A stretch of 59,163 bases of DNA, filler included, from Dugesia japonica (taxonomy: Eukaryota), in assembly GCA_001938525.1 (NCBI GenBank). It is 5 parts of 5 records of this genome, joined end to end, with 100 filler letters (N's around TTAATTAATTAA, not from the genome) between each part and the next. Parts side by side here need not be neighbours in the genome. Positions count along the whole stretch, not along the records: positions 47,605 to 59,163 come from MQRL01589258.1; 4 more parts are not named here. One strand, 5' to 3'. The notes below the pieces were generated by a model that was not told the origin of the DNA, did not search any database, and saw only the letters and a list, made by a program, of their open reading frames with translations. This document shows positions 55,611 to 56,334 of the stretch, one piece after another (the stretch's first letter is position 1; every line of letters begins with the position of its first letter). Position numbers and translations under genes: made by a program.

Positions 55611-56334
55611 AAATTATAGGTCAGAAAATTATAGGTAACGAATTATTTCAGATGAAAGATGAAGTGAGCGACTTTGCGATTGAAATCGCAAAAGGATTTT
55701 CAATATGAAGGTTTGGAAACTATTTACCTTAATATAAACAATGAATATTAATACTCAAAGTGTGAATTTTCACACCTTTTAAATAAACAAACGTAGGTGT
55801 GAAATTTCACACTTCAGTTGACCTCAAATAAATTTTTTTGTTTTAATTAACATGAAAAAAATTCATACATTATTTATTTTATTATTAAATTAAAAGTGGC
55901 GCATTGAGCATTAAAAAATTCAAATTAATTTCTTATTGTTTTAATCAACATGAAAAGTTTCACACCTTATTAATATTTTAATAAAAATTAAAAGCATTGT
56001 TCATTGAGTTTTATAAAATACATTATTCTTATTCTTATTAATATTATTATTATTTTTATTATTATTATTATTTATGTTATTTAAAATATTTTCATAGCGA
56101 CTAATTTTCACATCTTTAGCGTCAATCTTAACACCTAATTGTAAACAATGATTTTTTATCGGTGGGTGAACTTTCACACTTTTGGCATGAACTTTCACTA
56201 CTTATTCATTTGTATTGATGTGTGCATATTAAAAAACATATCATTGTTATTATCTAAATGTACTTTTAAGGTGTGAACTTTCATACAGTATTATAAACAT
56301 TGAATTTTTACACTTTTGAATTTTGATGCTGTAT

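Follow-up and report, generated by a model that had tools for sequence, protein, structure and literature searches.

Inverted pairs of T-box-like sites along the terminal inverted repeats of two deleted Polinton derivatives from Dugesia japonica

The window analysed here, a stretch of 59,163 nucleotides from Dugesia japonica (GenBank assembly GCA_001938525.1) with a GC content of 27%, contains two decayed elements, copy 1 of about 3.8 kb and copy 2 of about 3.1 kb, in each of which broken genes are enclosed by long terminal inverted repeats (TIRs). In copy 1, a broken adenain protease fragment (27995..28240, minus strand; E 8e-6 to the protease of the distant locus L009) is cut by the left TIR and lies beside the C-terminal part of a double-jelly-roll major capsid gene (28273..28656, minus strand; 45% over 134 amino acids, E 1.6e-26, to L009 2809-4146). 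Atlas neighbours of the capsid fragment, at 0.96-0.97, carry PF04451 (10% of members) or PF21738 (13%), which we treat as a lead only, and the ORF at the capsid position of L009 gave no Pfam or PDB sequence match. The broken C-terminal region of pPolB (29407..30480, plus strand) is directed at the right TIR, carries PF03175 and matches residues 903-1271 of P0002, an intact protein of 1286 amino acids (tblastn, E 2.9e-66).

Copy 2 carries a truncated pPolB (56320..57092, minus strand; 60% identity to P0002, E 1.6e-69), a broken adenain-type cysteine protease (57149..57520, plus strand; 43% over 61 amino acids to the L009 protease, which itself matches Peptidase_C5 at E 1.3e-7) and a broken DEDD-exonuclease-like Polinton accessory gene (57561..58043, plus strand) directed at the right TIR. 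The last of these shows 76% identity to the intact P0128 and lies within the range of 59-76% found for intact relatives; a structural comparison places it near Preplasmiviricota clusters (TM 0.80) and RNase_T exonucleases, and its homologue is the terminal gene of L009. A search with the pPolB piece of copy 2 yielded 94 matches, most of them with PF03175, and the pPolB sequences of the two copies pair up within a well-supported clade (100/99). At the DNA level, 27989-28343 of copy 1 is 83% identical to copy 2.

L009, a distant Polinton that is nearly complete and comes from a stray contig within a bacterial bin, has its exonuclease-like, protease and capsid genes grouped at one terminus and pPolB at the opposite one; since this gene order is kept in both copies, they are internally deleted Polintons that have retained both ends. 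They share with the Polintons or Mavericks (polintoviruses, adintoviruses) the pPolB, with an endonuclease VII domain in intact relatives, the adenain and the double-jelly-roll capsid, as well as long TIRs, the ACT-3' seen at the right end of copy 1 and the L009 gene order at both ends, but they differ in being deletion derivatives of 3-4 kb with broken genes and no internal integrase or ATPase. Their sizes fall outside the 15-25 kb that is typical of Polintons (PMC6431247). The retroviral-type integrase and packaging ATPase are absent inside both copies, having been deleted, which lowers the case for an autonomous Polinton but not for a Polinton derivative. With pPolB parts in both copies, an adenovirus-like protease, a capsid gene and long TIRs that are 87-90% complementary, the elements are ordinary decayed, internally deleted Polinton (Maverick, polintovirus) derivatives of a flatworm family, present here in two copies.

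The left TIR arm of copy 1 (27803..27994, plus strand) is truncated internally, its first two terminal bases lie within an N gap, and it gives a 90% inverted match to 31448-31601 in the right arm (30875..31608, minus strand), which extends over about 730 bp and ends in ...GGTGACT-3'. In copy 2, the left arm (55715..56315, plus strand) is truncated or decayed at its outer end and adjoins the truncated pPolB at its inner end; an extension to about 55660 was rejected because the 14-base match on which it depended was equalled by 201 of 500 shuffles. The right arm of copy 2 (58095..58850, minus strand) has an approximate terminus, and the two arms show an 87% inverted match (55774-56315 with 58181-58761). 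The outermost 80 bp of this right arm can be aligned to the outer end of the copy 1 left arm (score 39, reached by 0/500 shuffles), its inner boundary is homologous to 30860-30960, and in their outer parts the arms of the two copies are 83-86% alike. One and the same arm stands after pPolB in copy 1 but after the exonuclease-like gene in copy 2 and therefore constitutes the TIR, of about 730 bp. Together with the Polinton genes of the interiors, these inverted matches bear out the description of the arms as TIRs in an earlier note on this DNA, and they assign them to Polinton-derived elements.

Polinton or Maverick termini read 5'-AG...CT-3' and are flanked by a target-site duplication of 6 bp. 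Here the right end of copy 1 reads ACT-3', the two outermost bases on its left are N, and the ends of copy 2 are not sharp. The left terminus of copy 1 and the target duplication fall in the N gap, and insertion is evidenced instead by an interrupted Gypsy pol. On the left, a Gypsy integrase zinc-binding domain (27444..27611, minus strand; Integrase_H2C2, E 9e-5) gives tblastx matches to Gypsy sequences at 42229-42363 and 50756-50890, and on the right a Gypsy RNase H end (31647..31892, minus strand; RT_RNaseH, E 3e-4) matches Gypsy 42637-42855 by tblastx at E 2e-15. Copy 1, flanked by the RNase H and the integrase zinc domain of Gypsy, is therefore inserted in a Gypsy pol gene, and its boundary is thereby fixed independently.

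The arms carry a paired motif of fixed geometry, AGGTGTGA-Nk-TCACACCT. In the whole window a spacer of four yields 8 matches at up to two mismatches and 13 at up to three, whereas each other spacer from 0 to 12 yields none at up to two and at most one at up to three. When four mismatches are allowed, AGGTGTGA-N4-TCACACCT occurs 17 times, all 17 inside the four arms, with no pair in the 49,544 non-N bases outside both elements; 12 of the 13 exact half-sites in the window also fall in the arms. The observed pair count was reached by none of 1000 dinucleotide shuffles per arm at thresholds of 2-5 mismatches in all four arms (taken as 27803-27994, 30880-31608, 55709-56315 and 58130-58830), four results that are not independent because the arms are homologous to one another. 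Unguided k-mer counting and EM, with one arm per copy as input in order to avoid circularity, led to the same motif: the top 7-mers were AGGTGTG, GGTGTGA and GTGTGAA, which belong to the AGGTGTGA/TCACACCT pair, and EM at width 20 returned the pair with a log-likelihood ratio of 324, compared with 85-150 for five shuffles. Thus both enrichment over dinucleotide-shuffled controls and unguided motif discovery, checks of the kind that the earlier note had proposed, came out in favour of the pair motif, which is a real feature of the arms.

All the sites quoted earlier for the two copies are present, at the coordinate given or one base off, with 20-bp sites starting at 55758, 55795, 56269 and 58722 in copy 2 and at 27833, 27881, 27918, 30941, 31334, 31507 and 31544 in copy 1, and the quoted terminus of copy 1, AGGTGTGAGGTGACT, lies at 31594-31608. 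The density claimed, of about ten palindromes per long arm, holds approximately at a loose threshold, where up to 7 mismatches in 20 positions give 7 pairs in the copy 1 right arm and 9 in each copy 2 arm, but not at up to 3 mismatches in 16, where just 5, 3 and 2 remain. The best sites start at 30941, 31093, 31334, 31507 and 31544 in the copy 1 right arm, at 55758, 55795 and 56269 in the copy 2 left arm and at 58722 and 58208 in the copy 2 right arm, and the short left arm of copy 1 holds three good pairs (27833, 27881 and 27918). Sites in the middle of the long arms consist mostly of a good half and a weak half.

The family consensus for T-box proteins is a 10-bp element, AGGTGTGAAA, according to PMC11828899. 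The four free spacer bases read A..T in 14 of the 17 sites, against an expected fraction of 0.15, the sites of homologous arms not being independent, and with these bases included each half matches the T-box element over 9-10 bases. The site as a whole reads as two abutting, inverted 10-bp T-box elements, AGGTGTGAAA.TTTCACACCT. The T-box half-site reading of the earlier note gained from this, in that the match to AGGTGTGAAA (PMC11828899) extends past the eight bases it had named, A9 and T12 being fixed although unconstrained in the search. Over 32 halves the match is lowest at G2 (0.59) and A10 (0.53) and highest at A8 (1.0) and A9 (0.94). This pattern of tolerance agrees with the brachyury structure described in the same paper (PMC11828899), in which positions 1-2 are relaxed and positions 8-9 are read via thymine methyls, and the near-fixed A8 agrees with a loss of affinity on changing the equivalent base, as stated in PMC3791401.

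Individual sites resemble published ones. The first 12 bases of the site at 55795 are exactly the Brachyury half-site AGGTGTGAAATT of PMC3485041, and 31592-31606, at the copy 1 terminus, agrees in 13 of 15 bases with the Tbx20 selected site quoted there, a comparison made post hoc and by eye. The Brachyury T-site given there (TCACACCT-AGGTGTGA, no spacer; PMC3485041) has the reverse orientation, whereas the halves here meet at their AAA ends, and the T-site orientation is not enriched in the window, with 4 matches at four mismatches against 17 for the inverse. The closest site found in print is the TBX18 reporter site BS2, which in PMC6071992 has the same orientation as here and, as printed, a shorter spacer. 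A literature search for a T-box preference for the inverted orientation with a 4-bp spacer found nothing. This orientation with 4 bp is reportedly preferred in VegT/Eomes site selection and by HT-SELEX dimers of several human TBX proteins. According to PMC11828899, no palindromic sites have been identified in the promoters of known T-box targets. The comparison of T-box with other motifs covered only a few rivals: CSL, E-box and CRP (core; spacer of 6) had no match in the arms and TGIF had one. By rough reasoning rather than calculation against a motif library, a match of 9-10 bases to an animal factor consensus in both halves seems unlikely to be due to chance.

A different reader must nevertheless be weighed, namely a non-T-box protein of the element itself, such as its integrase, the terminal-protein domain of pPolB or a small accessory DNA-binding protein, with a T-box likeness that would be convergent or accidental. 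This is consistent with the confinement of the sites to the TIRs and their absence from 49.5 kb elsewhere, and also with the finding that the best conserved part of the pair is the inner TGAA.TTCA and not the directly contacted G3 and G5, which match in only 72% of halves. Further evidence on this alternative comes from 33 Polinton-type pPolB loci (L001-L033) in GTDB bacterial and archaeal MAGs, which are probably misbinned contigs of eukaryotic or viral origin. Their pPolB sequences show 24-36% identity, and of the 15 placed in a tree all 15 lie outside the clade of the window, so that they serve as controls only. The ends of L003, L009 and L029 carry tandem repeats of motifs unrelated to T-box, as if each family had a site of its own, and tandem, often palindromic motifs were observed at non-coding ends at L003 330-660, L009 655-815, L029 1-190, L013 1-8343 and L028 3854-5251; such repetition of end motifs may be a general trait of the Polinton group. 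However, the dispersed T-box-like pairs that mark the TIRs here were found in none of 31 non-coding stretches of the distant loci, though integrase and pPolB are common to all of them, and the extent of the T-box match in both halves is hard to ascribe to chance. We regard an element protein of another kind as an unlikely reader, albeit one to be taken seriously.

The motifs had also been described as staying recognisable amid low-complexity A/T spacers, but a drift of the spacers relative to the motifs lacks statistical support: motif columns are identical between the copies in 52 of 60 cases and other columns in 174 of 228, no significant excess (Fisher p=0.11; p=0.19 in a second test). The commonest change between copies is G>A (22 of 73), and AT-biased decay alone would spare A/T positions, a point against the T-box reading. 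The absence of significant excess conservation accords with an explanation in which the palindromes have no protein reader and are structural or neutral, either hairpins in a single-stranded replication intermediate or by-products of duplication or template switching. Some larger internal duplications do exist within arms, and for the outer 200 nt of the left arm of copy 2 folding is better than in shuffles (z -4.2), but the matching stretch of copy 1 folds ordinarily (z -1.1) and there is no Rfam match in 55600-59163. Of 49 deviating mirror pairs only 1 was compensated, which also speaks against hairpins but is not decisive, as neutral decay after insertion leaves uncompensated changes too. 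Moreover, the 15-nt flanks of different sites in the same arm are no more alike (0.39) than those of random positions (0.37-0.38), so that the array is not a simple tandem duplication, and hairpins need not share one sequence. A structural or neutral origin appears improbable to us.

The earlier note spoke of the element's own T-box protein, for which no support was obtained. Pfam found no T-box in 211 of the 213 non-low-complexity open stretches of at least 45 amino acids in the window (all but the two shortest; a further 79 of low complexity bring the total to 292), covered as 61 ORFs together with three frames and as 150 ORFs, nor in a separate run of 25 pieces and stop-read-through frames of the element interiors, and 14 T-box peptide patterns had no match in the six frames of the window. 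Outside the window, no T-box was detected in 18 ORFs of the distant Polintons L008 and L009, among the peptide patterns in the 33 distant pPolB loci or among the precomputed Pfam labels of the 94 pPolB matches. Both copies are deleted, and hence this absence does not exclude a T-box gene in full-length relatives; with the fetched loci that were placed in the tree all outside the clade of the window, the test for such a gene is a weak one. Full-length autonomous members of the clade might carry a captured T-box gene, lost here, whose product binds their own TIRs as operator or origin. The loss of most of the interior (3.8 and 3.1 kb remain, against a typical 15-25 kb; PMC6431247) leaves room for this, the strict dimer geometry, many times repeated, would suit a dedicated protein, and Polintons can hold genes resembling those of transcription factors, an example being the TBP-like ORF of L009 (1969-2421, minus strand; PF00352, E 2e-10), which lies between the exonuclease-like gene and the protease. 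Against it stand the negative searches above and literature searches that brought up Polintons, Mavericks or adintoviruses together with T-box in a single genome paper, incidentally, and we consider a captured gene quite doubtful.

Near the end of copy 1 the pairs are accompanied by other short motifs. TGTTTAC at 31581..31587 (plus strand) and its complement GTAAACA are sequences that we take to be forkhead-like; GTAAACA occurs 5 times in the four arms (2.25/kb) and 7 times elsewhere (0.13/kb), the positions in the arms being approximately 27820, 27857, 31581, 56140 and 58822. Counted from the copy 1 end, a single half-site (8-15 nt) is followed by the forkhead-like site (22-28 nt) and then by pairs occupying 46-65 and 83-102 nt. 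One TGACCT, presumably a nuclear-receptor-like half-site, is found per arm beside the T-box-like pairs (e.g. 31497-31502).

The auxiliary origin in adenovirus ITRs contains sites for the host factors NFI and Oct-1, and the layout of half-site, forkhead-like site and pairs at the copy 1 end is reminiscent of the adenovirus ITR. Both are inverted ends of a protein-primed linear dsDNA element with host-factor-like sites in the first 100 bp; the difference is that a single dimer site recurs here over 0.7 kb, the putative reader is a tissue-restricted developmental regulator, and the element integrates. The explanation that we favour, with modest confidence, is that host Tbx dimers probably bind the TIRs and would make them an enhancer or auxiliary origin, in the manner of the host factors on adenovirus ITRs. 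The TIR would then be a cis-regulatory module in which T-box pairs recur over 0.7 kb and forkhead-like sites lie close to the end, and host T-box proteins would bind the pairs as dimers. The sites could act as a distance-independent enhancer or silencer of the internal promoters of the element, could serve as an auxiliary origin beside the protein-primed terminus, or both, and Tbx binding would tie the activity of the element to Tbx-expressing cells. The terminal genes of both copies, like those of L009, run outwards into the TIRs; as they are transcribed towards the TIRs, the sites lie downstream and are not their proximal promoters, which argues against the simple operator role that had been suggested. 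Five tbx genes are reported for S. mediterranea in PMC9522251, with tbx-20 prominent in the stem-cell network, and a host reader therefore exists if the host is a planarian.

A bolder proposal, which we put forward as speculative and consider unlikely as it stands, is that a flatworm polintovirus clade employs as its end-binder a T-box protein, whether a stem-cell Tbx of the host or the product of a captured gene of its own, which would license replication or integration only in Tbx-expressing cells (neoblast or germ line), and that the clade, through widespread insertion, would seed T-box and forkhead enhancer modules across the planarian genome.

Subterminal repeats read by the transposase of the element itself are found in hAT and CACTA elements and in the IR/DR of Sleeping Beauty. 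The arrays described here share with them a short motif distributed along long TIRs with unrelated spacers, but here the match is to a family of host factors, and mobilisation would fall to an integrase of retroviral type. That viral or transposon ends carry sites for host factors is well known as a principle, which limits surprise; what appears to be new is a TIR composed of dispersed, fixed-geometry T-box-like dimer sites. A term search of Starrett 2021, supplement included, found no mention of T-box-like pairs in Polinton TIRs, and term searches of PMC4206766, PMC11225425 and PMC11410931 gave no relevant match. Outside subscription journals, Repbase reports and bioRxiv supplements, the search of the literature brought to light no description of Polintons with T-box sites or T-box genes. 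To our knowledge, almost nothing has been established about the activation of Polintons in their animal hosts or about the factors that read their long TIRs. A repeated, defined site that matches a known factor family makes the latter question testable by an ordinary binding assay. Should host Tbx bind, a virus-like element would be linked to a developmental regulator in a model animal for regeneration and stem cells, and the arms would provide natural inverted T-box dimer sites, of a kind not found in target promoters according to PMC11828899.

Both copies lie among other decayed repeats. More pPolB relics occur at 50133-50339 (minus strand) and at 55112-55599 (plus strand), the latter directly to the left of copy 2 and closer to L008 than to the clade of the window, which indicates that a second Polinton family is present. 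A further Polinton relic, with packaging ATPase followed by integrase in the order seen in L009, lies at 39541-39975 and 40796-40945 (plus strand), and no T-box-like half-sites occur in this region (38900-41250). Decayed Gypsy-type retrotransposons with gag, protease, RT, RNase H and integrase are located at 41668-45300, 50300-50950 and 24794-25738, all on the minus strand, and relics of Tc1/mariner-type transposases at 37655-38560 (plus strand), 4458-4640, 19128-19385 and 6114-6359. An unrelated fold-back element at 53787-54523, with 230-nt arms that are 97% complementary, 31-bp tandem units and a CGCGCC core, contains no T-box-like sites. The sequence TTAATTAATTAA stands between two N runs at about 13215 and 24790, and is inferred at 35690 and 47550; it is an assembly linker and as such produces false inverted repeats.

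Host genes are represented by an exon of serine palmitoyltransferase 2 (18387-18755, plus strand), which groups with flukes and tapeworms (95/97 over 106 columns; 91/85 in a second tree) and of which no other exons were found in the window. Taken with the GC content of 27%, this grouping suggests that the host is free-living and probably a planarian. A Ras-family exon lies at 751-924 (plus strand), and 51452-51718 (plus strand) holds a fragment that we take to be crooked-neck-like. A cysteine-containing frame of 127 amino acids at 35116-35496 (minus strand) has no good Pfam match, and an array of 18-bp tandem repeats, split by an N gap, extends over 3431-4060.
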